From NCBI RefSeq assembly GCF_000179635.2, contig NC_014833.1, positions 3,360,001 through 3,392,000 on the forward strand: a stretch of DNA of 32,000 bases, in the 5' to 3' direction. The notes under the pieces are model-generated. The model was not told the origin of the DNA. It saw only the letters and a program-made list of their open reading frames with translations, and did not search any database. This DNA comes from Ruminococcus albus 7 = DSM 20455 (GTDB taxonomy: Bacteria; Bacillota; Clostridia; Oscillospirales; Ruminococcaceae). Of this stretch, positions 7,071-19,436 are shown one piece after another (position 1 is the stretch's first letter; each line of letters opens with the position of its first letter). The translations under genes and the position numbers were made by a program.

Positions 7071-7760
7071 TTATTTGCTTGTGTCACCGATGCCGTATTT
7101 ATCTTTCAGCCTTACGAATATTCTTTCTGCGGGCTTTACGAACAACACGAGGAATATGCAGTTCGATACCATATAGCTAACCGTGAACCATGCTGAGGTG
7201 AGGGTCAGCCCGAGAAATCTTTCGGGGGTGAATCCGCCGCCCAGCCATAACACGCTGCATATATCCATAAACACTGAATAACACGCACCTGCAGCCACGC
7301 CGAACACGCACAGCAGCAGGGGCTTTTTTTTCAGTTTACTTCCCACAAGACCTGCCAGCAGACCTATTATACCCCACACCATCATCTGGAAAGGAGTCCA
7401 TATCCCCTGGGTAAAGAAGAAATTTGATATCAGTGCTGTAAGTGCACCTATCATGAATCCCTGTTCAGCCCCTAGGTATATACCTGCAAGTATTATCACA
7501 GCCGCGCAGGGTTTGAAAGCGGGCAGAGGTGCGAATATTATCCTTCCTGCCACAGAAAGTGCCGTCATCACTGCTGTCAGTGCCACCTCGCCCGAAGCCG
7601 CTTCTCTCCGCTCGAACCTTGCGAAGAATATGCCGCATACAGCCACCGCAGCCGAACCTATCAGCCAGACCGCAGCCCTGTCCCTGAATATCACGCAGCC
7701 ACCTGCGATAAGTGCCATTGATCCTGTCAGCAAAGCCGCCTTCACCGACCTGCGCATCAT
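7071..7760 (-). CDS. ECF transporter S (substrate-capture) component, specificity unknown
   Basis: About 6 TM helices, small size, motif QGIWTPFQMMVWGIIG. ATGA overlap with the upstream ATPase gene. Last gene of a T / A-A' / S module. Confidence 0.75.
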   Translation of the reverse strand: MMRRSVKAALLTGSMALIAGGCVIFRDRAAVWLIGSAAVAVCGIFFARFERREAASGEVALTAVMTALSVAGRIIFAPLPAFKPCAAVIILAGIYLGAEQGFMIGALTALISNFFFTQGIWTPFQMMVWGIIGLLAGLVGSKLKKKPLLLCVFGVAAGACYSVFMDICSVLWLGGGFTPERFLGLTLTSAWFTVSYMVSNCIFLVLFVKPAERIFVRLKDKYGIGDTSK

Positions 7761-9343
7761 TCAACTCCCCCTGCCGCCAGCCGCAGCATCTCTGCAGTGT
7801 ATGCATTTTTGACCTCGCCGCGTGCTATCCTGCCTGCAGCGGTACTGAGATATCCTGCCTTCGCGAAAAATCCTGCCGCAGGCATCAGGCTCTCCACACG
7901 TCCGCCGCACAGTATACCACAGCTGTCTGCGGTTTCTGCCGCGTATTCCATATCATGGGTCACAGTCAGCACTGCCCTGCCCTCAGCGCAAAGCTTTCTG
8001 ACCATATCCCCTATACGCCTGCGTGCCTCAGCATCCAGACCCTTTGTGGGCTCGTCCAGCAGAAGTATCTCAGGCTCGCATAAAAGCACCCTGCCAAGAC
8101 CGCACAGCTGCATCTCACCGCCGCTGAGGTCATATGGGTGCATATCCCCGAGGTGTCCGCAGCCCATACGCTCAAGCATCTCATCAGCCCTGTCCTCAGG
8201 CTTTCCCATAGCCCTCAGTGCATAGATATAATCCTCGCGCACCGTCGGCTGAACAAACAGGTCTGCCGCCTCCTGCGGAAGCATCGCAGTAACAGCACCC
8301 TGCTTTTTCTGCCGTTTCCCGAAGACTTCCACCTTGCCCGAGTAAGCCCTGCAAAGTCCTGCAAGACACCTCAGCAGAGTGGTCTTGCCGCTGCCGTTAG
8401 CCCCGATGAGTGCCAGATGCTCTCCCCTGTGCAGAAGTATATCCGCCCCTGCCAGTATATCATCATCCTTGCGCCCCCACGCGAACCTTACTCCCTCAGC
8501 ACGCAAAGCATCCTCCCCGAAGGTCTTCCTTTCACCAAGAGGCACCTCTCTCTTATGAGGTATCTCAGCCAGCAGCCGCCTGCCCTCACGCACCGTCAGC
8601 GGTACAGGCTCATACCCTGCAAAAGCCCTTGCTGCCGCAGGCATAAAGCTCTCTGCCGCCTTTACGGCTGCTGTTTCACGGGGTGTACCGTCCGCAATTA
8701 TCCTGCCGTCTTCAAGGAATATCACCCTGTCACATTCTGCAAACAGCAGTTCGGTACTGTGCTCCGCAATTATCACCGTCATACCCGTTTCACGGTTAAG
8801 CCGAAGTATCAGGGCGCTCATATCCTCAGCCGTCACAGGGTCAAGTCGGCTGAAAGGCTCGTCAAGCAGAAGTATCTCAGGCTGCATGACAAGTGCCGCA
8901 CAAAGGCTCACCAACTGCTTTTCACCGCCCGAAAGCTCACTCAGTTTCCGCTCCGCAAGCTTTCCCAGCCCGAAACGGGTTATGGTTTCCGCCGCAAGCC
9001 GACGTACCTCCGCCGCATCAAGCCCTGCATTCTCAGGAGCAAACATTATCTCACCGCGCACCCTGTCACTCACAAAGCCGTCCTCGGGGGACTGTGCCGC
9101 ATACCCGACCTTCGGCTGAGGGCTCACTGCCTTCTCCCCGAATATCCTTATCTCCCCTGTCATATCGCCCCTCGGGGATATCTCAGGCTTCAGCAGTTTC
9201 AGCAATGTGGTCTTGCCGCAGCCCGAATGCCCCATAAGCATCACAAGCTCGCCCCTGCCTATCCTGATATCTATGTCCTGCAGTACAGGTGCATCAGCAC
9301 TGCTGTAACGAAACGTCAGTCCCTTGCAGTAAACAGCGTCCAT
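7757..9343 (-). CDS. energy-coupling factor transporter ATPase, fused duplicated A-A' protein
   Basis: Two full ABC cassettes: GHSGCGKTTLL / LSGGEKQ / LLLDEP and GANGSGKTTLL / LSGGEMQ / LLLDEP. Start placed at the internal ATG (MDAVYCKGL...) with ggagagg RBS. The tracked ORF extends to 9385. Confidence 0.9.
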   Translation of the reverse strand: MDAVYCKGLTFRYSSADAPVLQDIDIRIGRGELVMLMGHSGCGKTTLLKLLKPEISPRGDMTGEIRIFGEKAVSPQPKVGYAAQSPEDGFVSDRVRGEIMFAPENAGLDAAEVRRLAAETITRFGLGKLAERKLSELSGGEKQLVSLCAALVMQPEILLLDEPFSRLDPVTAEDMSALILRLNRETGMTVIIAEHSTELLFAECDRVIFLEDGRIIADGTPRETAAVKAAESFMPAAARAFAGYEPVPLTVREGRRLLAEIPHKREVPLGERKTFGEDALRAEGVRFAWGRKDDDILAGADILLHRGEHLALIGANGSGKTTLLRCLAGLCRAYSGKVEVFGKRQKKQGAVTAMLPQEAADLFVQPTVREDYIYALRAMGKPEDRADEMLERMGCGHLGDMHPYDLSGGEMQLCGLGRVLLCEPEILLLDEPTKGLDAEARRRIGDMVRKLCAEGRAVLTVTHDMEYAAETADSCGILCGGRVESLMPAAGFFAKAGYLSTAAGRIARGEVKNAYTAEMLRLAAGGVE

Positions 9344-10176
9344 TGAAGCCTCTCCTTTCCCAGTATAATAAGCGGCAGCATACATTCCGCAAGATATACC
9401 GCCGTCATAACGAGCTCATATCTTCCGAAGTCTATCGTCGGGAAAAACTCCGTTGCTCCGCCCATTGACGAAAGCACCAGACCTGCGGCTGTAAGCAGTA
9501 CCACCGCACCAATGGATACCATGTCCTTAGCCCTCAGTGCCCTCCTGTCAGAAAATCTCACGGGATGCGTGCCGTATCCACGGGCATTCATGCTCTGTGC
9601 CGCACCTGCAGCCGCCTCTGCCGACCAAGCCATGCAGGCAGTAAATACCGCCCCGACTTCTCCCAGCCGACCTGTAGGACTGTTCTCCCTGAAAAGCCCT
9701 GCACCGCGCTGCGCCTCGCTTATCCTTCTGTTTTTCTGTATCAGCCGCGGTATGAACCCGAGGGTCATACTGATAGTCATGGCAAGCCTCGGAGAATATC
9801 TCCCGAATATGCCCAGCATCTCACGCTCGTTCACAATACTTCGCATGACCGCCAGCCATACCCCCGCACCGCTCAGCGAAAGTCCAAGCTCCAGCCCGTA
9901 AAGCATGGATTCCAGCGTGTAGGGACGGTCATTCACAAAGAGCAGGACAGTCATTCCCCTGTGTGAGAATATGGGGTCAATAACAGCCGTAGCCGCACAT
10001 ATCACCAGTACACCTGCCGCCCATTTCAGCCCCCTGCGCCAGCCGTCATACAGCGCCATGCACATAAGCCCCGTCACTGTCCCGACACCTGCCGCGCAAA
10101 GTGACCTGGGGAACATTATCATCACCAGTATACCCACTACAGCCGCTATACGCGTCAGCGGCGCAAAACTCTTCAT
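9316..10176 (-). CDS. energy-coupling factor transporter transmembrane (T) component, CbiQ/EcfT family
   Basis: Polytopic membrane protein with the T-component coupling-helix motif ...SMNARGYG (Ala-Arg-Gly) and an upstream EAQRGAG. ATGA overlap with the upstream gene. Confidence 0.85.
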   Translation of the reverse strand: MKSFAPLTRIAAVVGILVMIMFPRSLCAAGVGTVTGLMCMALYDGWRRGLKWAAGVLVICAATAVIDPIFSHRGMTVLLFVNDRPYTLESMLYGLELGLSLSGAGVWLAVMRSIVNEREMLGIFGRYSPRLAMTISMTLGFIPRLIQKNRRISEAQRGAGLFRENSPTGRLGEVGAVFTACMAWSAEAAAGAAQSMNARGYGTHPVRFSDRRALRAKDMVSIGAVVLLTAAGLVLSSMGGATEFFPTIDFGRYELVMTAVYLAECMLPLIILGKERLQWTLFTARD

Positions 10177-10634
10177 CTGTCCGCCTCCCCGATAAAGCTG
10201 TCAACATATGTGAACACTATCTCGTCACCGCACTCGGGCTGATACTCGCCGCAGTTGATATCGGGGGCTGTACCGTTCACGGTGTATATCCAGCCGCTCT
10301 CAGCACCATAGTCAAATTCTTCCAGACCGCCTATACCGCTTATGTATACTGCCCTGCCGCCCTTGGTATCAAGGTCTATGCCCTCATACCTCAGCACTCT
10401 CGCGGCAACATCATATACGCTGTCACCGGAAACCAGTGCATATCTTCCCTCAAGGGAAATTCCGCCGTTCACCGCAGAGCTGTCCACCTTTATAGTGACA
10501 TACTCTCCGTCCTCTGTGACCTCAGTCGGGTGGAGCGCATAGTACTCCTCAGGGGTCTTTATATCCACAAAGAGGACAGCCGCTGTCAGTACAGCCGCCG
10601 CACCGCCTATTAATATTATATCCCCTGTTCTCAT
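10173..10634 (-). CDS. membrane-anchored DUF4430 domain protein (transcobalamin beta-domain-like)
   Basis: N-terminal TM anchor. C-terminal EEFDYGAESGWIYTVNGTAPDINCGEYQPECGDEIVFTY matches the DUF4430 signature (SGW-Y-VNG ... GD-I-F-Y). Confidence 0.8.
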   Translation of the reverse strand: MRTGDIILIGGAAAVLTAAVLFVDIKTPEEYYALHPTEVTEDGEYVTIKVDSSAVNGGISLEGRYALVSGDSVYDVAARVLRYEGIDLDTKGGRAVYISGIGGLEEFDYGAESGWIYTVNGTAPDINCGEYQPECGDEIVFTYVDSFIGEADR

Positions 10635-10655
10635 GCTCTCAGCTCCCGTCCATGA

Positions 10656-12467
10656 TCAATACAGCCCTCGCAGCCGCCGTATCAGACTTTTTATGCGCCC
10701 CTGTTTTTTAGAAGCCCTCAGTGCTTCCTCATAGAATCTCTTTGCCTTTTCCAAAGCCTTGTCATCGGGGGCTTTGTCGGAAAATCTCAGTTCCTCATAA
10801 GCCCTCTCGGATTCAGCGAACCGTGTGCCAAGCAGACCCTCTGCTTTCTCTGCCAGTACCTCGGGGGGAAGTCCGTGTAGTCCCAGCACCTCCTCCATAA
10901 GCTGTCTGCCCTGAAAATGATCAGCCTTCAGCGCCGCAGTATCATCATGCTTTCTCCGCAGTGACCACCTGTATGCCGCCCTTATCCTGCCTGCCGCCAA
11001 TGCCGCCGCAAGTATGCCAAAGGGCATCAGCATAAGCCTTCCCGAGGTTTTTGTGGTTTCCTTTTCGGCACGTATCTCTGCGGCTGTACGCGGCGGTGCC
11101 GAACGGTATATGATATCCTCCGCCGATGAGGTAAGTCCGTCACTTTCCTCACCGTCCGCGGAAGTCCCCTCGGGAAGAAGCGGAGAGCTTTCTTCATACT
11201 CCCGTGAAGCTTCAAACACTGACCAGCCTGCACCGTCGATGTATACCTCTGCCCATTCACGTTGCTCGCCGTCTGCAAGCCTTGCTTTGCCGCCTTCGGG
11301 CATACTCTTAAAATATATGCCCTTTACTGTTCTCGCGGCTATACCGCAGCTTCTCGCAATATCCACTGTCAGCTGCGCATGATCGCTGCTGTCAGCCGCT
11401 TTGTCCGAAAGCTCATTCCTCACAGCCGTCCTTACAGCTGCAAGTTTAACATCAAGGGGCTGTGTACCGTCCACAGGGTACTTCTCACGTAGCTTTTCTT
11501 CCTCATCAGCTGTCAGGCTGCCGTAAGCAGAATACACATACTCGCGGTAAAGTCCCTCGCGGTCAAGATATTCGCCTTCTTTCAACTGTGTCATCAGCCT
11601 GAATATCTCCTTATCTGCCTGCGGACACACCACGTATCCGCCTTCAGTATATTCCGAACATACTCCTGCAGGGATAAGATCTTCACCGACATTAACTTTC
11701 TCCATCGGCAGTACAGCGCCTGCAGATCCCATAAGCTGACCTTTCTGTGTCATCTCATCGAAGCCTGCTTCACGCAGGGTTTTCATTATCGCTGAACCTC
11801 TTGCATACTGCGCCTTGCTGCAGTGCGGCTCCTCGTAGCTCTCTGCCAGATAAAGGGTCATACCCTCTGCTGCCGATACTTCGCCTGCAGGCGGCAGTTC
11901 GGGCAGCCTTATCAGCACCGCAGGCAGGGCTATTACCGCCGCCCCCAGTGAAAGCACAGCACGCCTCATATCCTTTGCACCGAGTATAAGCACCGATACC
12001 GCCAGTGCGACCGCACCGCAGACAAGCAGGCTGCTGCCGCCGAAAAGCACGCTCCCCGCAGCAGCCGCTATCCCCCACAGTACCGCTGCCGCTCTCACTC
12101 CTGCGGCTGAATACACCGCACAGGATATGCCGCAGAAGATAAGCACTGCAATATAAGCACTGTCAGCCGCCCCTGCCACAGGCACATACATCAGACCGCG
12201 CTTTATCGTATACATATACTCAGCACTGTCGGCACAAAGGGCAAATTCTGCCCTAGCCCTGTCATGGAGGATACCTGCCGCCAGCCCGCCGCATAAGGCA
12301 GGCAAAAAGCCCCATATCCGTCCTAAACGCTCAGCGAGATATGCCGTCAGCACACACAGGAACAGAGCTGCCGCTCCAGCGTACAGCCCACCCCATATAC
12401 CTACTGTCAGTGCCGTCCCCACCCCGAAAACTACGGGTGCGGAGATATACGTTCTCTTTTCTTCCAT
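10656..12467 (-). CDS. transglutaminase-like polytopic membrane protein (TgpA-like) with DUF4129-like C-terminal region; catalytic triad apparently substituted
   Basis: About 6 N-terminal TM helices. Core ...ARSCGIAARTVKGIY...REWAEVYIDGAGWSVFEAS aligns to the transglutaminase core (GIPAR ... HAWAEVY..GW..FDP). A further TM helix and a helical C-terminal tail follow. Sits downstream of MoxR and DUF58. Confidence 0.8.
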   Translation of the reverse strand: MEEKRTYISAPVVFGVGTALTVGIWGGLYAGAAALFLCVLTAYLAERLGRIWGFLPALCGGLAAGILHDRARAEFALCADSAEYMYTIKRGLMYVPVAGAADSAYIAVLIFCGISCAVYSAAGVRAAAVLWGIAAAAGSVLFGGSSLLVCGAVALAVSVLILGAKDMRRAVLSLGAAVIALPAVLIRLPELPPAGEVSAAEGMTLYLAESYEEPHCSKAQYARGSAIMKTLREAGFDEMTQKGQLMGSAGAVLPMEKVNVGEDLIPAGVCSEYTEGGYVVCPQADKEIFRLMTQLKEGEYLDREGLYREYVYSAYGSLTADEEEKLREKYPVDGTQPLDVKLAAVRTAVRNELSDKAADSSDHAQLTVDIARSCGIAARTVKGIYFKSMPEGGKARLADGEQREWAEVYIDGAGWSVFEASREYEESSPLLPEGTSADGEESDGLTSSAEDIIYRSAPPRTAAEIRAEKETTKTSGRLMLMPFGILAAALAAGRIRAAYRWSLRRKHDDTAALKADHFQGRQLMEEVLGLHGLPPEVLAEKAEGLLGTRFAESERAYEELRFSDKAPDDKALEKAKRFYEEALRASKKQGRIKSLIRRLRGLY

Positions 12468-12481
12468 TATCGCTTATACTC

Positions 12482-13405
12482 TCATATACCGTCTATTATC
12501 GTGATACGCTCATCGTTTATGTCCGTATTTACGGCGAATGCGATGATATTACCTTCATCCGCCCTGCTGCAAAGCTTTTCGAGAAAGCTCACGCCAACAG
12601 ACTTATACATCGGGAAATGCAGTACCTCATACATCACAGTTTCACTGTCCGCATTCTCCGTATATCTGAAGTCATCCTCACCGTAAGGCAGTACCAGTCC
12701 GTACTCCACCCCACGCAGGGACAATACCTGTGCCAGACCGCACATAGCCTCTGCCAGTACTCCTGCCCTGTCACCTGCGCCATAGTCCGCAAACAGCCAC
12801 AGCTTGTCCGATCTTTCGGGGATATAGGTGTTTATGTACGGCTTGCCGAAACGGTGTGTAAGTTTCAGGTTTACCTTGCGCAGCGGCTCATCGGGACGTG
12901 CCTCTCTTGCACCGTCAGGTTCATTCTCCCCCACAGCAGCCTCCAGCATATCGTACACCTCAGCCGCAGGAGGATCGGGCATAACAGTTACATAGCCCTC
13001 CGCACAGCATACAACAGACCGCTTTGTTATACCGGGTATATCCTTTCTGTAAAAGCTCATATACCTTATCAGCAGACCGCCGCAGTTATCCTGCGCAGGC
13101 AGCACATATCTGCGTTCATCTCTTATGTCCACATCAAGGGCTGTCCTTTCACCTGTGACTATATTCTCGCAAAGCACCCTGCCGCGCAGACGTTTCTTTC
13201 CTGCGAATATCAGTACCGGAGATCCGCCCTTGTTTATGCATACCCTCTCATAGCTGACATTTACTTCGCCCTTGTCCGCCAGATTTTCAGCCGCAGCCGC
13301 GATCAGCACTGCCAGCATACCTGCCGCGAAGTACAGACCTATTTCATTGAAAAGACCTGCCGCCAGCGCCGCCGCAAAGCACAGCGCGAATATCAGCGTC
13401 CTCAC
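12482..13405 (-). CDS. DUF58 domain protein (vWA-like partner of MoxR)
   Basis: GTG start in a GTGA overlap with moxR. Two N-terminal TM helices. GAREARPDEPLRKVNLKLTHRFGKPYINTY aligns to the DUF58 motif G-R-Y--GD--R-I-W----R. Classical position between MoxR and the transglutaminase-like gene. Confidence 0.75.
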   Translation of the reverse strand: MRTLIFALCFAAALAAGLFNEIGLYFAAGMLAVLIAAAAENLADKGEVNVSYERVCINKGGSPVLIFAGKKRLRGRVLCENIVTGERTALDVDIRDERRYVLPAQDNCGGLLIRYMSFYRKDIPGITKRSVVCCAEGYVTVMPDPPAAEVYDMLEAAVGENEPDGAREARPDEPLRKVNLKLTHRFGKPYINTYIPERSDKLWLFADYGAGDRAGVLAEAMCGLAQVLSLRGVEYGLVLPYGEDDFRYTENADSETVMYEVLHFPMYKSVGVSFLEKLCSRADEGNIIAFAVNTDINDERITIIDGI

Positions 13406-14343
13406 AGGTTCTCCTTGTTTTCGGGGTAAGGCAGTTCTTTGAGTATTTCTTCTAGTATCCCCTCGGGAGTCTTACCTGAGGCACGTGCCTCCCTTGTCAG
13501 CACCAGTCTGTGCGCACATACGGGTATAAAGCAGGTACGTATATCACGGGGCACCACATGATCTCTGCCGTCAAGATAAGCCCCTGCCTTTGCCAGCCTG
13601 AAAAGTGCCAGCGCACCTCTCGGGGATATGCCGCCCTCGGTGTATCTGCTGTCAGCCGCCTTCTGAATAAGGTCACACAGATAGTCCGTCACTTCTTCAC
13701 TGACAGTCACCTTGTTTATCTCAGCCCTGATAGCATCGAGGTCTTCCGCATTACACACCTGCCTGACACTGTCCAGCGGGTCGGAATCCTTTCTATCCGT
13801 AATAAGCCTTTTCAGTGCTTCCCTGTCAGGGGCACCAAGCCTGAGCCTTTCCATGAATCTGTCAAGCTGTGAAAGCGGTATAGCCGAGGTGCCTGCTGTA
13901 CCCGTAGGATTCTGGGTAGCTATCACCGTAAAGTAAGGCGAAAGCTCATGGGTAATGCCGTCTACCGTAAGACCGCGTTCTTCCATGGCTTCAAGCAGTG
14001 CCGCCTGAGTCCTGCCGGATGTCCTGTTCAGCTCGTCTGCCAGCAGAAGGTCTGTCATAGCCGCACCCTCATGGTACACGAACTCGCCCTTGCCCTCATC
14101 GTAAGCCGAATAACCCGTTATATCCGAAGCTGTAGTATCAGGTGTCATCTGTATCCTCCTGAACCTGAGACCCATAGTCCTGGTAAGCGCCAGCGCAAGG
14201 GTAGTCTTGCCCGTACCGGGAGTATCCTCCAGCAGCACATGACCGCCTGCCAGCACACCTGCTATCAGCAGTTCAACGGTATCGTCCTTGCCGATTATGA
14301 CCTTTGTCAGTTGTTCCTTTATTTTCAGGGGAATGGTCTTCAT
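13402..14343 (-). CDS. MoxR family AAA+ ATPase
   Basis: Walker A LLEDTPGTGKTT and Walker B LLADELNR. RTSGRTQAALLEAMEERGLTVDG and ATQNP motifs are typical of MoxR/AAA_3. Confidence 0.9.
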   Translation of the reverse strand: MKTIPLKIKEQLTKVIIGKDDTVELLIAGVLAGGHVLLEDTPGTGKTTLALALTRTMGLRFRRIQMTPDTTASDITGYSAYDEGKGEFVYHEGAAMTDLLLADELNRTSGRTQAALLEAMEERGLTVDGITHELSPYFTVIATQNPTGTAGTSAIPLSQLDRFMERLRLGAPDREALKRLITDRKDSDPLDSVRQVCNAEDLDAIRAEINKVTVSEEVTDYLCDLIQKAADSRYTEGGISPRGALALFRLAKAGAYLDGRDHVVPRDIRTCFIPVCAHRLVLTREARASGKTPEGILEEILKELPYPENKENL

Positions 14344-15515
14344 CTGTTCTTTTCCTTTCTTCTTCGCATAAGGATGCCGCCCGATACAGCCGCTATCCCG
14401 AAAACAGCTATCACCGCAGATACAGAAGCCGTAACTTTTTTCCCTTTCGCAGAGCTTTTTTTCACAGCAGGCGCTGTGGTGTTCCTGTTTTTAGCGGCAG
14501 CCATAGCATCAAGCGTTGTCCTTTGAGGCTTTACTGCACTTCCTTCGTTCATATCGTACACAGACCTTTCGCCCGACCTCAGTCTTTGCAGGCTGCAAAG
14601 GGCTATCAGCGCCTGAGATGATGCAAGCTCGCTGCTGCTTTCGCCCTTTTTGTGAGCGAAGCCGCCGTCATCATTGGCAAAGCTTATCATAGCATCTGTA
14701 AGCCATGCGAACCTTTCATCAGTGTCGGGGTCTATATCAAGGCAGCACAGCGCACATATCATCTGCGCTGTACTCTCACAATTGTCGGCACTGCTTTTGT
14801 TCTCAGCCAGATATCCAAGGGCTGCAGCTATGGTGCCCTCAGCTTCCTCACAGTTTCTGTAAGGTGAAAGCGCCTGAAGTGCCATAGCAGTTATGTCGAT
14901 ATCGCTCCTGCCGTCACCTGCCGTGAGCGAATAGCCGCCGTCGGAGTTCTGTGCAGAGATAATGGTATCTATCATATCTTTCCTGTCGGGGTCTGCTCCC
15001 TCGGGCATCTTCCAGTCACAGCTGTCAACAGCTATCAGTCCCCATATCCATGCGTTCAGCCCCTGCTTGTCCAGTGACCTGTTCTCTCCGCGGAGATAGG
15101 TGCCGCACCCCAGCAGGTCAACACCCGATACATCAGCGGGGTCAGCCCCGAGGCAAAGCCCTGTGAGCACTGCCCTATGCCAGTCCGTAGGGACTATCTT
15201 CCCGATGCTTTTCTCGTCCGAATAATCCTCCTGTATACGTTTCTCCCATGCCGCACGGTACTCGGCTGTATCATCCTCCAGCCCTGCTCTTACCGCGCCT
15301 ATCGCCAGCCAGTCGGAGCTGTCGAACCCGGCATCCTCTGCTATACTGCCCGAAAGAAGGCTGTCCTTTTCGGGTATACCGTTCTTATTCTTTTCAAATG
15401 TGATGATGCCCCTTGCATAGCCCTCTGCCTGACCGGTCTCCAGTGCTGATGCACTTACAGGCACAAGCAGCATCACTGCTGCCGCGGATAATGCCGCAAG
15501 TCTTTTCAACATCAT
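14340..15515 (-). CDS. secreted alpha/alpha-toroid protein (prenyltransferase / squalene-oxidase repeat family; transcobalamin alpha-domain-like) with C-terminal TM anchor
   Basis: Signal peptide (AAAVMLLVPVSASA). Repeated Q-x-x-DGG-[YF] motifs (SAQNSDGGYS, ANDDGGFA). Helical-repeat signatures (DITAMALQAL, SSQALIAL). C-terminal TM helix plus RRRKEK stop-transfer. Confidence 0.75.
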   Translation of the reverse strand: MMLKRLAALSAAAVMLLVPVSASALETGQAEGYARGIITFEKNKNGIPEKDSLLSGSIAEDAGFDSSDWLAIGAVRAGLEDDTAEYRAAWEKRIQEDYSDEKSIGKIVPTDWHRAVLTGLCLGADPADVSGVDLLGCGTYLRGENRSLDKQGLNAWIWGLIAVDSCDWKMPEGADPDRKDMIDTIISAQNSDGGYSLTAGDGRSDIDITAMALQALSPYRNCEEAEGTIAAALGYLAENKSSADNCESTAQMICALCCLDIDPDTDERFAWLTDAMISFANDDGGFAHKKGESSSELASSQALIALCSLQRLRSGERSVYDMNEGSAVKPQRTTLDAMAAAKNRNTTAPAVKKSSAKGKKVTASVSAVIAVFGIAAVSGGILMRRRKEKNR

Positions 15516-17419
15516 TCACCTCCAACATCATTTCCAAGGTCAAGGGAGAATGCCAGCGTAACACGCTCGCCGTCGGCAAATACTGCCGAGGACATAGCGT
15601 ATGAAGGCTTTCTTCCGTTGCGGCTGTAAAGCCAACCCGAGCCCGGTGCAAAATCAAATTCACCGAGAGAATCGGCATCACTGCTGTTGTTGGGCGTTAC
15701 TCCCGCAGCTGCAAGATATGCCCTTGACTCCTCCGTCAGTGCAGCATCTGCAAATCTGCCCTGCATACGTATCCTGTCAAGATACCTGCTGCTGTCACTG
15801 CCACGTGAGGATACCTCAAAACCGTTTTCTTCAAGGAACCTCAGCATTGTATCAAAGCCGTTTTCGCCCTCCAGTACGGGAAAGCTGTCATCTTCACAAA
15901 GCGTACCCAGCCCGACGGCATCAGCTTTTACGGATACAGCTATCCTGCCTACCTCAGTACCTTTCTCAACAGCATCGCAGTTTATTTTATAGAAGAACTC
16001 TGATATCCTGCCTGCCCTGTCTTTCAGCTTTACAGTTACAGCATTCTCACCTGCACGCAGGGAAAGTATATATCCCGTACAGGTGCTGTCCTCCCATTTC
16101 CGCGGTACCTTTGTGCCGCCGCATATCACCTCGGCACTGTCCGAATACAGCCGCACTCCGTCGCAGTCAACTGCCCTGAAAGTCAGTGTATACGCACTGC
16201 CCTTTACCGTTATACCGTCGGTAAGGCTAATGCTTTCAAACCGCGGAAGTCTTTCCTCTGCTGCCGGCGGAAGAGATATTACGGTGAATGTCTGCTCAAA
16301 ACCGTCTTTTCCGTCACGTACCCACAGACGTATCTTATTGTTGCCCTCATTCAGTTTTGCGGTATAATCGCTTTCACCGCGAAGTGCTTTGTCGTTTACC
16401 AGCACTATCAGCTTCGGGGAATTCCCTCCCACTGCCTTTGCGCTGAAGGTGATACTGTCGGAATACACTGTGATATCAGAAAGGTCTGTTATCAGCGAGA
16501 GTTCTCGTACAGGTATATATGTAACAGAAAAATCAAGGACAGTATCCCCCGAGGACAGTTTTATCATGTTCTCGCCCTCGTTAAGGTTAACGGTGAATAC
16601 ATCCCTGCCTTCGACTGTCCTGCCGTTCAGCCATACCTCCATGCCGTCTTCGCAGGAGGCTGTAAAGGTGAATACGGGATCGTAAACATCGCAGTCTTTA
16701 AGGTCTGTGACTATCTCCGAAGCAGGAGATGACAGGTACACCGTATAATCGCGGAAAGCCCTGTATATCCTGTTTTCGCCGTCCTTATAGGTACAGCTTA
16801 CCCTGAGGGAGTTAGCACCCTCTCTCAGGCGCACCCTGCCTGCGAACCCTGTCATAAGAGAACCGTTGACCTCAACATCACAGCGGACAACTTCAAGATC
16901 ATCTGCAAGATGAGTTACAGTGAAAAAGTAGGTACTGTCACTGACGGTCTCACCGTCCTTTATCGAGGCAGTGAAGTACTCACGGTCGGCTTGTCTGCCG
17001 TCGGGGGTCACCTTTGCAGGTTCGGTGGCTTCGTCGGGGACCTGCACTGTCTGTACCGAGGCTTTGCTGTCATCCGCAGAAGATGTATCATCCTCTCCCG
17101 TGACGATGAACGATGCAGGTACATCTGCCGAAGAAGCATCACTGCCGCTGTCAACGGGTGCTGTATCGTTATCGGGTATGCTGTCGGGCACTGAGCTTTC
17201 ATCGGTACGGGAGCTGGTATCTTCCCTTTCGGAGCTGCTGTCCCTGCCCTTCAGCCCTTCGGCTGATATCTCGGGCAGCATGACTTCACGCTGAGTTATG
17301 CCGACAGATATATCCTCACGGGGAGCACTGCGGTAAAAGTGCGCAGCAAAGCAGACAGCCCCTGCTGTAAGCACAGCAGCTGCCGCAGATACTATCAGAC
17401 TTTTCCGCTTTTTTTCCAC
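15512..17419 (-). CDS. membrane-anchored surface protein: Ser/Asp-rich linker, four Ig-like repeats, C-terminal DUF4430 domain
   Basis: GTG start with gggagg RBS. N-terminal TM helix and an S/D/T-rich low-complexity stretch. Four repeats of about 90 aa, each ending L-EG-N-I-L...F-V-Y. C-terminal LGEFDFAPGSGWLYSRNGRKP...ADGERVTLAF is paralogous to 10173-10634. Confidence 0.75.
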   Translation of the reverse strand: MEKKRKSLIVSAAAAVLTAGAVCFAAHFYRSAPREDISVGITQREVMLPEISAEGLKGRDSSSEREDTSSRTDESSVPDSIPDNDTAPVDSGSDASSADVPASFIVTGEDDTSSADDSKASVQTVQVPDEATEPAKVTPDGRQADREYFTASIKDGETVSDSTYFFTVTHLADDLEVVRCDVEVNGSLMTGFAGRVRLREGANSLRVSCTYKDGENRIYRAFRDYTVYLSSPASEIVTDLKDCDVYDPVFTFTASCEDGMEVWLNGRTVEGRDVFTVNLNEGENMIKLSSGDTVLDFSVTYIPVRELSLITDLSDITVYSDSITFSAKAVGGNSPKLIVLVNDKALRGESDYTAKLNEGNNKIRLWVRDGKDGFEQTFTVISLPPAAEERLPRFESISLTDGITVKGSAYTLTFRAVDCDGVRLYSDSAEVICGGTKVPRKWEDSTCTGYILSLRAGENAVTVKLKDRAGRISEFFYKINCDAVEKGTEVGRIAVSVKADAVGLGTLCEDDSFPVLEGENGFDTMLRFLEENGFEVSSRGSDSSRYLDRIRMQGRFADAALTEESRAYLAAAGVTPNNSSDADSLGEFDFAPGSGWLYSRNGRKPSYAMSSAVFADGERVTLAFSLDLGNDVGGE

Positions 17420-17558: not shown

Positions 17559-19436
17559 TCATCTCTCCTTGTTTATAAGCTTCTTGCCCTTTATATTTGC
17601 TGCTGTTAACGTGATATCACTGACATTCACCTTGCCGTCTGCATTCACATCAGCCGCATTGAAGCTGTACTTATCTATCACTTTCCTGCTCTTTATATTA
17701 GCTGCAACTATTGCCAGATCAGTGATATTCACTTTGCCGTCACCGTTGACATCGCCTTTATGAGCAAGTGCGCGCTTATACTGATCATCATTTTCTGCAA
17801 CGAGAACGTCTATATCCTGTGATACAGAAGGTGCTTTGCCGTTACCGTTATACAGACCGTAACTGAAGCTTGCTGTGAGGACTTCATCATCGGCACTGAA
17901 CTTATCAACGCTGAATGTAAGATCCTTGCCTGTGATATCTCCTATGGTCTTCACGGGACCGTTTTTGATATCAACAGTATACTCCTTATCGGCAGGTGTT
18001 TCATCTGCCTTGAAGACGAAGGTCTTTACACCATTGGGATGTATGGTGATATCGGGGCACTGGATATCGGGATCGGATATTCCGCTGCCTATTGCAAGGA
18101 TATTGAATGAATCGTTGCGTATATAGAGAAGTCCTGTTTCCTCGTCATATACAGGATCAACTGCGCAGTACTGTGCGTGCTCACCCTGGGGTCTGAACAC
18201 AACAGGAGGACAGGTATGCTTTTTGCCTGCAAGGTCTGTTTCCTCTACAGTATCGGCAGGAGCGGTCATGCCTGCTTTATCCCTGAGCATACGTACAACG
18301 CCCGAAGTACCGTTTTCAACATAGTATATAACATTATAGCCTTCCTTGTCAACGCCTGCGAAAACGCCCTTAGCCTTGCATTCTGCGGAAGTTTCAACGG
18401 CATAAGCAGGTTCAAGCTTTATCTTGCCTTCGGCCTCAACGATATCGAAAACACCGATGTGGGAACCGTTATAATCGTCCCAGCCTGTTCCCTGGAAAGT
18501 AACGTATACCCTGCCGTTTTCAACTATCGGGGTCGAGGTGCAGGTGAAACCATTCGGGCCAAGAAGAGAAGCTGTGATCCCGTAGCCGTAGACCTCACCG
18601 TTAGTGTCGATCAGATGCACACCGCCTTCACGCGAGGTATAGTAGATCACACCATCCTTGAGTACCAGCTTGCTGCGGATATCATCATGTGCGGTACCGA
18701 GCTTACTGATGAGCTCGCCTGTTGCATCGTCAACGGTGACGGTGCGGTTATTTTCGCCTTCCTCGTTAGCGCCTTCTTTGCCGTTCTCGACACCGAAGGT
18801 CACCTTACCGTCGTATACAACAGCGCTTGTCCAGTAGAAGCCGCCCGCATTGGTGTACTCCCATTCTGCAGTCTTTTCCTCATCTGTCTTTTCGGTATCC
18901 CCATCGGCTGCGCTTACCTTTACGAAATCGGCATCTGCCTCATCGGAGTTCCAGAAGCCTGTATAGAGATAGCCGTTTTCAACTACGATATCGCAGGTGG
19001 GCTTGCCGCCGTTCTTGTTTGTGTATACCCACAGTGATGTAAGGGTCTCGGCATCGAAAGCCTGTATCTTGCCGCCGTCGAGAGCCATGAACACTTTGCC
19101 GTCAGCATAAACGGGGCCTTTGGTAGCGTACATAGCTTTACCTGCCATTTTGCCGTTCAATACCTCTTTGCCTGTGAACTTATCTATCTTCTTGATATTA
19201 TCTGCCGAACAGATATAGAGATATCCGTTATCAGCAACAGTGAAGCCTGTGGGGGAATCCGACCACATCATCTTGTCTTCGCCTATCTGATCCGCCCAGT
19301 ACAGGACATTGTCATCAGCCTTGGTGAGATCGGGCGAAAGTGTCTTATCGGCAGCAAACACGTTTAATGCCGCTGCATTTACAGCCAGTATAGATGCGCA
19401 GAACGCACTGAGTATTTTTACAGTTGTTTTTTTCAT
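17559..19436 (-). CDS. secreted PQQ-like beta-propeller repeat protein with C-terminal type-I dockerin
   Basis: RBS ggaga and signal peptide (ALNVFA/AD). PQQ_2-like blades (GKVFMALDGGKIQAFDAETLTSLWVY). C-terminal duplicated calcium-binding segments GDVNGDGKVNITDLAIVAANIK and ADVNADGKVNVSDITLTAANIK form the dockerin. Confidence 0.85.
   Translation of the reverse strand: MKKTTVKILSAFCASILAVNAAALNVFAADKTLSPDLTKADDNVLYWADQIGEDKMMWSDSPTGFTVADNGYLYICSADNIKKIDKFTGKEVLNGKMAGKAMYATKGPVYADGKVFMALDGGKIQAFDAETLTSLWVYTNKNGGKPTCDIVVENGYLYTGFWNSDEADADFVKVSAADGDTEKTDEEKTAEWEYTNAGGFYWTSAVVYDGKVTFGVENGKEGANEEGENNRTVTVDDATGELISKLGTAHDDIRSKLVLKDGVIYYTSREGGVHLIDTNGEVYGYGITASLLGPNGFTCTSTPIVENGRVYVTFQGTGWDDYNGSHIGVFDIVEAEGKIKLEPAYAVETSAECKAKGVFAGVDKEGYNVIYYVENGTSGVVRMLRDKAGMTAPADTVEETDLAGKKHTCPPVVFRPQGEHAQYCAVDPVYDEETGLLYIRNDSFNILAIGSGISDPDIQCPDITIHPNGVKTFVFKADETPADKEYTVDIKNGPVKTIGDITGKDLTFSVDKFSADDEVLTASFSYGLYNGNGKAPSVSQDIDVLVAENDDQYKRALAHKGDVNGDGKVNITDLAIVAANIKSRKVIDKYSFNAADVNADGKVNVSDITLTAANIKGKKLINKER

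Follow-up and report, generated by a model that had tools for sequence, protein, structure and literature searches.

A TgpA/YebA-type protein of Ruminococcus albus 7 with a probably inactive transglutaminase core, encoded in a capture and ECF transport operon

We analyzed a 32,000-nucleotide window of the Ruminococcus albus 7 genome (NC_014833.1, positions 3,360,001 to 3,392,000), in which the minus-strand open reading frame (ORF) at 10656..12467 encodes P0001, a 603-aa transglutaminase-fold membrane protein of the TgpA/YebA type. It is likely that P0001 is a catalytically dead member of this family that functions as a non-enzymatic scaffold or adaptor of a MoxR-DUF58 module, within an operon for surface capture proteins and an energy-coupling factor (ECF) importer. 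Judging from the alignments, two of the three catalytic positions, those of the Cys and the His, are truly lost, without a conserved substitute for the nucleophile. Because the motifs that determine the fold are held under strong constraint, non-enzymatic work appears most likely; P0001 presumably lacks catalysis and would link MoxR-DUF58 to the surface capture proteins.

The catalytic columns were located in three independent ways that agree with each other. The canonical paralogue C1:2496171 from the same genome, the best of 13 matches, aligns with P0001 without gaps over 66 residues and places its Cys, His and Asp on Ser360, Arg403 and Glu419. With a hidden Markov model (HMM) of 21 canonical Cys-His-Asp/Glu cores, P0001 aligns at E = 8.6e-20, and the model points to the same three columns. 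Finally, the core-segment profile A3 matches the solved TgpA of Pseudomonas aeruginosa (6g49; E = 8e-17), the Cys, His and Asp motifs of which fall on these columns as well. TgpA was reached in the PDB only by the profile that includes canonical relatives, and PDB sequence searches that started from full-length P0001, from the core by itself or from the A1 profile yielded nothing or noise. An error of register that hides a normal Cys-His-Asp triad can practically be dismissed, given that three independent alignments agree and that one of them is to a solved active enzyme. The preliminary description, in which the core was aligned by eye, had put Ser, Arg and Glu at the catalytic positions, and each of these placements is exact: Ser360 lies 15 residues before Gly375, Arg403 two residues before Trp405, and Glu419 directly after G414-W415-x-x-x; the peptide quoted there is indeed encoded at 11193-11405 on the minus strand (residues 355-425 of the 603-aa ORF).

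An active enzyme of this type has a Cys at the N-terminus of a helix, a His two residues before the conserved Trp, and an Asp or an accepted Glu that orients the His. At the Cys column, P0001 carries Ser360 (AGC; 11388..11390, minus strand, as are all window features below), which varies among the orthologues and is never Cys. At the His column, there is Arg403 (CGT; 11259..11261), one transition away from CAT, which is invariant in the R. albus-group clade and in the 18 closest relatives. The third column is occupied by the invariant Glu419 (GAA; 11211..11213), a frequent variant in canonical relatives: related cores comprise 28 with Cys-His-Glu against 12 with Cys-His-Asp, and of the 49 loci outside the capture clusters defined below, 38 have Glu and 11 have Asp at the third position. 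Since most relatives in which Cys and His are intact carry Glu here, the replacement of Asp by Glu is not a loss. The initial claim that all three catalytic positions were substituted accordingly stands for the Cys and the His but not for the Asp.

The same description had named Cys374 (11346..11348) as the residue that could overturn its register. This Cys occupies a hydrophobic column where the helix ends, immediately ahead of the GIAAR motif, and as a displaced nucleophile it is rejected: it lies at the far end of a 14-residue helix, and relatives with a nucleophile of their own have C, L, I, F, Y or M in this column (C, L, I, F or Y in those with a Cys or Ser 14 residues upstream). A further Cys, Cys270 (11658-11660), belongs to a P-x-x-V-C motif that is invariant in the 15 closest orthologues and absent from the next relatives; the motif lies toward the N-terminal side of the ectodomain, where a strand is predicted. 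The GVCSEY-like segment 268-275 around it was considered as a second nucleophile motif and discarded: its score is not significant, a strand is predicted for it, and P0022-P0024 do not have Cys270. It is quite unlikely that P0001 is still an enzyme with a re-wired site, in which Cys270, Cys374 or Ser360 would act as the nucleophile and Arg403 and Glu419 would have assumed new catalytic roles. The invariance of Cys270 and Cys374 in the 15-16 closest orthologues and the weak resemblance of the Cys270 segment to the G-V-C-x-x-Y nucleophile motif (domain score -3.4, not significant) are compatible with such a site, and the papain-like superfamily includes cases of both a migrated active site and a Ser in place of the Cys (PMC10318531). 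However, Ser360 is not conserved, the Cys374 column is hydrophobic in canonical relatives, and Cys270, which is placed in a beta-strand and not at the start of a helix, is not conserved in P0022-P0024, proteins that share Arg403. In addition, we know of no Arg acting as a general base in a transglutaminase fold, which also counts against a re-wired enzyme.

In the AlphaFold2 model of P0001 (mean predicted local distance difference test score, pLDDT, 83.6), the core, with pLDDT of about 92, is papain-like. Helix 360-373 starts at the nucleophile column, as at the papain-type nucleophile position, and the His and Asp positions are borne by a beta-hairpin, with Arg403 carried by strand 401-410 and Glu419 preceded by strand 414-418, as expected for the transglutaminase fold. 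Superposition of model residues 190-427 on the TgpA periplasmic domain (6g49/6g4h) gives Z scores of 11.3-11.5 over 189-191 residues, and the full-length model matches Bacillus subtilis YebA and P. aeruginosa TgpA with a probability of 1.00. In this arrangement, Arg403 and Glu419 would plausibly form a structural salt bridge replacing the former His-Asp pair.

Conservation was assessed in 16 orthologues, all from the R. albus group, with 41-66% identity to P0001; orthologues are either 99% identical or less than 66% identical, and constraint was gauged by column conservation. In this set, Arg403, Trp405, Glu407 and Glu419 are invariant, and column 360 holds S, G, E, D or N but never Cys, so that Ser360 itself is no conserved replacement for the Cys. 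The GIPAR proline has changed to Ala or Gly in step with the change of His to Arg. No other region of the protein is conserved as well as the transglutaminase core, in which 30 of the 90 columns are invariant; in the beta-hairpin 400-420, 11 of the 21 are. With its strongest conservation in the core, the gene is not decaying. Thus, at the sequence level, P0001 has the properties of a pseudo-enzyme, namely, a retained fold, lost catalytic residues and purifying constraint, and the earlier suggestion of a pseudo-enzyme or repurposed scaffold domain, rather than a decayed gene, is supported: the nucleophile column drifts without ever being Cys, Arg403 and Glu419 stay fixed, the frame is intact and embedded in the operon with 14-nt and 21-nt gaps to its two neighbours, and the ten genes stay together in clusters where the identity of the TgpA-like proteins is only 23-44%. 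One reservation is that the Ser at position 360 is not itself a conserved feature. A functionless relic, decaying after the loss of the catalytic residues, would account for the two missing residues, but it is very improbable: besides the conservation of the core, every orthologue retrieved, even at 41% identity, has an uninterrupted frame of about 600 aa, and the operon position is kept even where the TgpA-like proteins show only 23-28% identity to P0001 in local matches.

The same conservation pattern could reflect a cleft turned into a ligand-binding site, in which Arg403 and Glu419 directly contact either the tetrapyrrole or a capture-protein peptide; the domain would then act as a receptor instead of providing a passive scaffold. 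The invariance of these two residues while the nucleophile column drifts, the concomitant change of the GIPAR proline, the proximity of the gene to tetrapyrrole-binding modules, and the B12-riboswitch control of a relative are all in line with this possibility. Nevertheless, we consider it unlikely: a structural salt bridge explains the Arg-Glu pair equally well, and an identical task in the same type of operon is performed by the sister proteins that carry His.

The Arg form is narrowly distributed, given that an exhaustive search of 1.84 billion representatives retrieved only seven clusters at E < 1e-30 and that only 3 of the 201 genomes of the same family contain a match at E <= 1e-10. To place it among its wider relatives, we took the 80 loci with the best tblastn matches to P0001, a sample that is biased toward the relatives of this protein and in which the rows are akin to each other. 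The triad columns were scored in the 86 TgpA-like ORFs of these loci, and the flanks were searched with HMMs derived from the other proteins of the operon. A MoxR gene lies upstream of 65 of the 86 ORFs, and 37 are in a capture-cluster context, defined by at least two capture or ECF genes nearby. None of these 37 has the catalytic Cys; the first position is Ser in 24, Asp in 7, Ala in 2 and Glu in 1, and is unaligned in the remaining 3. The Cys is present in 22 of the 30 ORFs that are accompanied by MoxR (with or without DUF58) only, the others having Ala (6), Asp (1) or Ser (1), and in 16 of the 19 with neither context, where the exceptions are one Glu, one Ser and one Gly.

Phylogenetic analysis places the Cys-less proteins in one clade of 47 tips (SH-like support 99 in FastTree; Shimodaira-Hasegawa-like approximate likelihood ratio test, SH-aLRT, 92 in IQ-TREE with LG+C20). 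The capture-cluster clade of 40 tips (97 and 91, respectively) is nested within it, and the clade with Arg, comprising 9 tips (99 and 99), is the sister of a pair of Ruminococcus proteins with Ala-His-Glu. The tree requires two changes between Cys and non-Cys and one between His and Arg, the latter at a later stage and within the R. albus group alone. The sister group of the capture-cluster clade (L076, L086, L094, L084, L099, L055 and L049), which includes Eggerthellaceae (Actinomycetota), consists of proteins with Ala-His-Glu or Asp-His-Glu that have only MoxR, with or without DUF58, nearby. Hence the loss of the Cys may predate, or be separable from, the association with capture clusters. 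Genes of the capture-cluster type with Ser-His-Asp/Glu are also found on contigs labelled Bacteroidaceae (L062) and Coriobacteriaceae (L100), which could be due to a binning error or to lateral transfer. Several proteins of 1000-2800 aa (P0027, P0028, P0030, P0049 and P0056) contain two to five transglutaminase cores each, in which Cys-His-Glu copies alternate with Ser/Gly/Ala-His-Asp or Ser-Arg-Asp copies; the Ser-Arg-Asp copies indicate that the change of His to Arg arose elsewhere in the superfamily, too.

In the most likely scenario, a single loss of the Cys nucleophile took place in the common ancestor of a group of Clostridia proteins, most of which are encoded in transcobalamin-like capture clusters, often with a dedicated ECF importer, and the His was then replaced by Arg, again once, in the R. 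albus group. P0001 would be the membrane-spanning scaffold or adaptor of a module formed by the MoxR ATPase and the DUF58 protein, through which ATP hydrolysis in the cytoplasm could be coupled to the assembly, remodelling or unloading of surface capture proteins for a tetrapyrrole, probably a corrinoid, and these capture proteins would feed the ECF importer.

Several observations weigh against this scenario. The absence of the Cys from all 37 proteins in capture clusters reflects essentially one evolutionary event and not 37, as the rows are related and were drawn from the best 80 matches; the counts as a whole come down to one old loss of the Cys and one later His-to-Arg change. Most of the wider clade retains Ser-His-Asp/Glu, which could in principle constitute a serine-type active site; if so, the clade was ancestrally catalytic, and the R. 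albus group changed its function rather than kept a scaffold role. A search of the window with Rfam, the operon leader included, detected neither a riboswitch nor any other family. Furthermore, a simpler operon of Lactobacillus sakei, with toroid, DUF4430 and ECF genes and without the trio of MoxR, DUF58 and TgpA-like genes, has been reported as a heme importer (bioRxiv 10.1101/864751). The identity of the ligand is uncertain because of this report; in the R. albus operon it is a tetrapyrrole, probably a corrinoid.

The scaffold reading can be extended to a more specific proposal, which we put forward tentatively and consider rather improbable as a whole. The proteins of the Cys-less TgpA-like clade would serve specifically as a handling factor that acts outside the cytoplasm, driven by ATP, on transcobalamin-like capture proteins for tetrapyrroles. 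Their dead cleft (with Arg403 and Glu419 in R. albus and Ser/Asp-His-Glu elsewhere) would grip the capture protein or the corrinoid, while MoxR-DUF58 would power the assembly of the capture protein or the release of the tightly bound ligand to ECF S. Animals solve the transcobalamin problem by degradation. If the proposal is correct, the handling factor would be a bacterial counterpart to that degradation and the first concrete function for the trio in this type of operon.

The P0001 gene is the sixth of ten co-oriented genes that run from 17559-19436 to 7071-7760. The first three encode putative capture proteins identified by Pfam, namely, a PQQ-propeller/dockerin protein (17559-19436), a cadherin-like protein (15512-17419) and a prenyltransferase-type alpha/alpha-toroid protein (14340-15515). 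Next are a MoxR AAA+ ATPase (13402..14343; Pfam AAA_3, E = 1.3e-46), with both Walker A (GTGKT) and Walker B (DELNR) intact, and a divergent DUF58-like partner of 307 aa with a hydrophobic N-terminus (12482..13405), for which the Pfam DUF58 match is weak (E = 0.17) and the slot and size are those of the DUF58-annotated genes in related clusters. Downstream of P0001, Pfam identifies a DUF4430 protein (10173-10634) and the components of an ECF importer: ECF T (9316-10176), a fused ECF A-A' (7757-9385) and ECF S (7071-7760). The body of the operon (window 8001-16000) has a G+C content of 53-56% and a strongly negative GC skew, with 44-47% G+C in the flanks.

Both the gene order, with P0001 directly after the MoxR AAA+ and (weakly assigned) DUF58 genes, and the domain architecture are those of the TgpA/YebA type. 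The N-terminal polytopic helical membrane bundle (residues 1-189; 11901..12467) is evident from hydrophobic stretches and from model helices 9-185 with pLDDT of about 85-93. It is followed by a domain of residues 190-475 (11043..11900) that is presumably extracytoplasmic, as suggested by the alignment of residues 190-427 of the model to the periplasmic domain of TgpA, and that contains the transglutaminase core (residues 347-435; 11163..11429), in which Pfam recognizes Transglut_core (PF01841) at residues 347-419 with a score of 38.8 bits (cut-off 23; E = 1.2e-9). The last transmembrane helix (residues 476-504; 10956..11042) is supported by a model helix of the same extent and, by charge count, precedes an Arg/Lys-rich stretch, whereas the C-terminal helical bundle (10656..10955; model helices 509-599) is probably cytoplasmic and weakly DUF4129-like (Pfam E = 0.024, below the cut-off). 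No direct Pfam match to TgpA_N was detected in P0001, and the NCBIfam search assigned it to no family; TgpA_N, Transglut_core and DUF4129 are all present in its atlas neighbours. The R. albus 7 genome contains 13 Transglut_core matches, several with intact Cys-His-Asp cores, two of these in ORFs of 909 and 1325 aa, so that an inactive copy would not be the sole transglutaminase-fold protein of the cell.

The order of the ten genes recurs at L009, L016 and L019, where the TgpA-like proteins are 44%, 23% and 15% identical to P0001, respectively, in the full-length alignment A2. At L016, a cobalamin riboswitch (RF00174; 1224-1496, plus strand, 46.4 bits) is located upstream of the related ten-gene cluster, in which the TgpA-like protein has Gln-His-Glu. 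At L018 (1494-5089), MoxR is followed directly by P0026, an 895-aa TgpA-like protein with Lys-His-Glu that appears to be a fusion of DUF58 and TgpA, and then by a DUF4430 gene. The toroid and DUF4430 proteins correspond to the two halves of the transcobalamin fold, and the 2007 paper on SLBB and transcobalamin that described them mentions neither transglutaminase nor MoxR genes (PMC1796856).

Trios of MoxR, DUF58 and TgpA-like genes occur in many bacteria. A clade that lacks the nucleophile and, in one lineage, also the His, and yet keeps the operon intact, argues that the job of the module, at least in this setting, requires no transglutaminase chemistry. The strict association with capture and ECF genes provides a concrete setting for the function of the trio, namely, the uptake of corrinoids or heme by Clostridia of the gut and rumen, and caution is called for before such proteins are annotated as transglutaminases or cysteine proteases. 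Our searches of the literature revealed no description of a Cys-less TgpA clade tied to capture/ECF operons or of the Arg variant, no papers on bacterial transglutaminase-like pseudoenzymes, and, for yeaC/yeaD/yebA, nothing useful. Papain-like families with Ser in place of Cys and inactive transglutaminase-like domains are already known (PMC10318531); what is new here is not the kind of protein but the pattern across contexts, with the Cys in none of 37 capture-cluster proteins as opposed to 22 of 30 and 16 of 19 elsewhere.

Among the known systems, TgpA (PA2873; 6g49/6g4h), which is essential in P. aeruginosa, shares the architecture and fold of P0001. Its domain has a conserved Cys-His-Asp triad and a measured transglutaminase activity, and its gene is co-transcribed with two upstream genes (PMC3507681). 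In contrast, P0001 has Ser, Arg and Glu at the triad columns, is only about 16% identical to TgpA and belongs to a capture and ECF operon. The two genes co-transcribed with tgpA, which are not so named in the paper, we take to encode MoxR and DUF58. Like P0001, YebA of B. subtilis (P94476) is a TgpA-type membrane protein of a Firmicute, and it heads the structural matches to full-length P0001 among reviewed proteins (probability 1.00 over query residues 10-580); we know of no capture or ECF context for YebA. More remote parallels are the erythrocyte band 4.2 protein EPB42 and FBXO21, in which a transglutaminase fold without a working triad serves in protein binding or scaffolding (PMC10318531). 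Unlike P0001, these proteins are eukaryotic, soluble or peripheral, occur in an unrelated context and have no MoxR or DUF58 partner. The PFNA cluster of bifidobacteria consists of pkb2, fn3, a MoxR-type ATPase gene, duf58 and tgm (PMC8430577, PMC6803598). It resembles the P0001 operon in that a trio of MoxR, DUF58 and transglutaminase-like genes adjoins a gene for a surface binding protein, and differs from it in that the surface partner is an FN3 protein and no ECF importer is present. The closest counterparts are the Cys-less TgpA-like proteins from capture/ECF clusters of other Clostridia (P0025, P0047; L016, L019), which share with P0001 the ten-gene neighbourhood, the loss of the Cys and a common clade. 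These proteins keep the His, mostly as Ser-His-Asp/Glu or Asp-His-Glu, along with the GIPAR proline, whereas the R. albus-group clade is distinguished by Arg in combination with GIAAR and by a shorter loop between the core strands.

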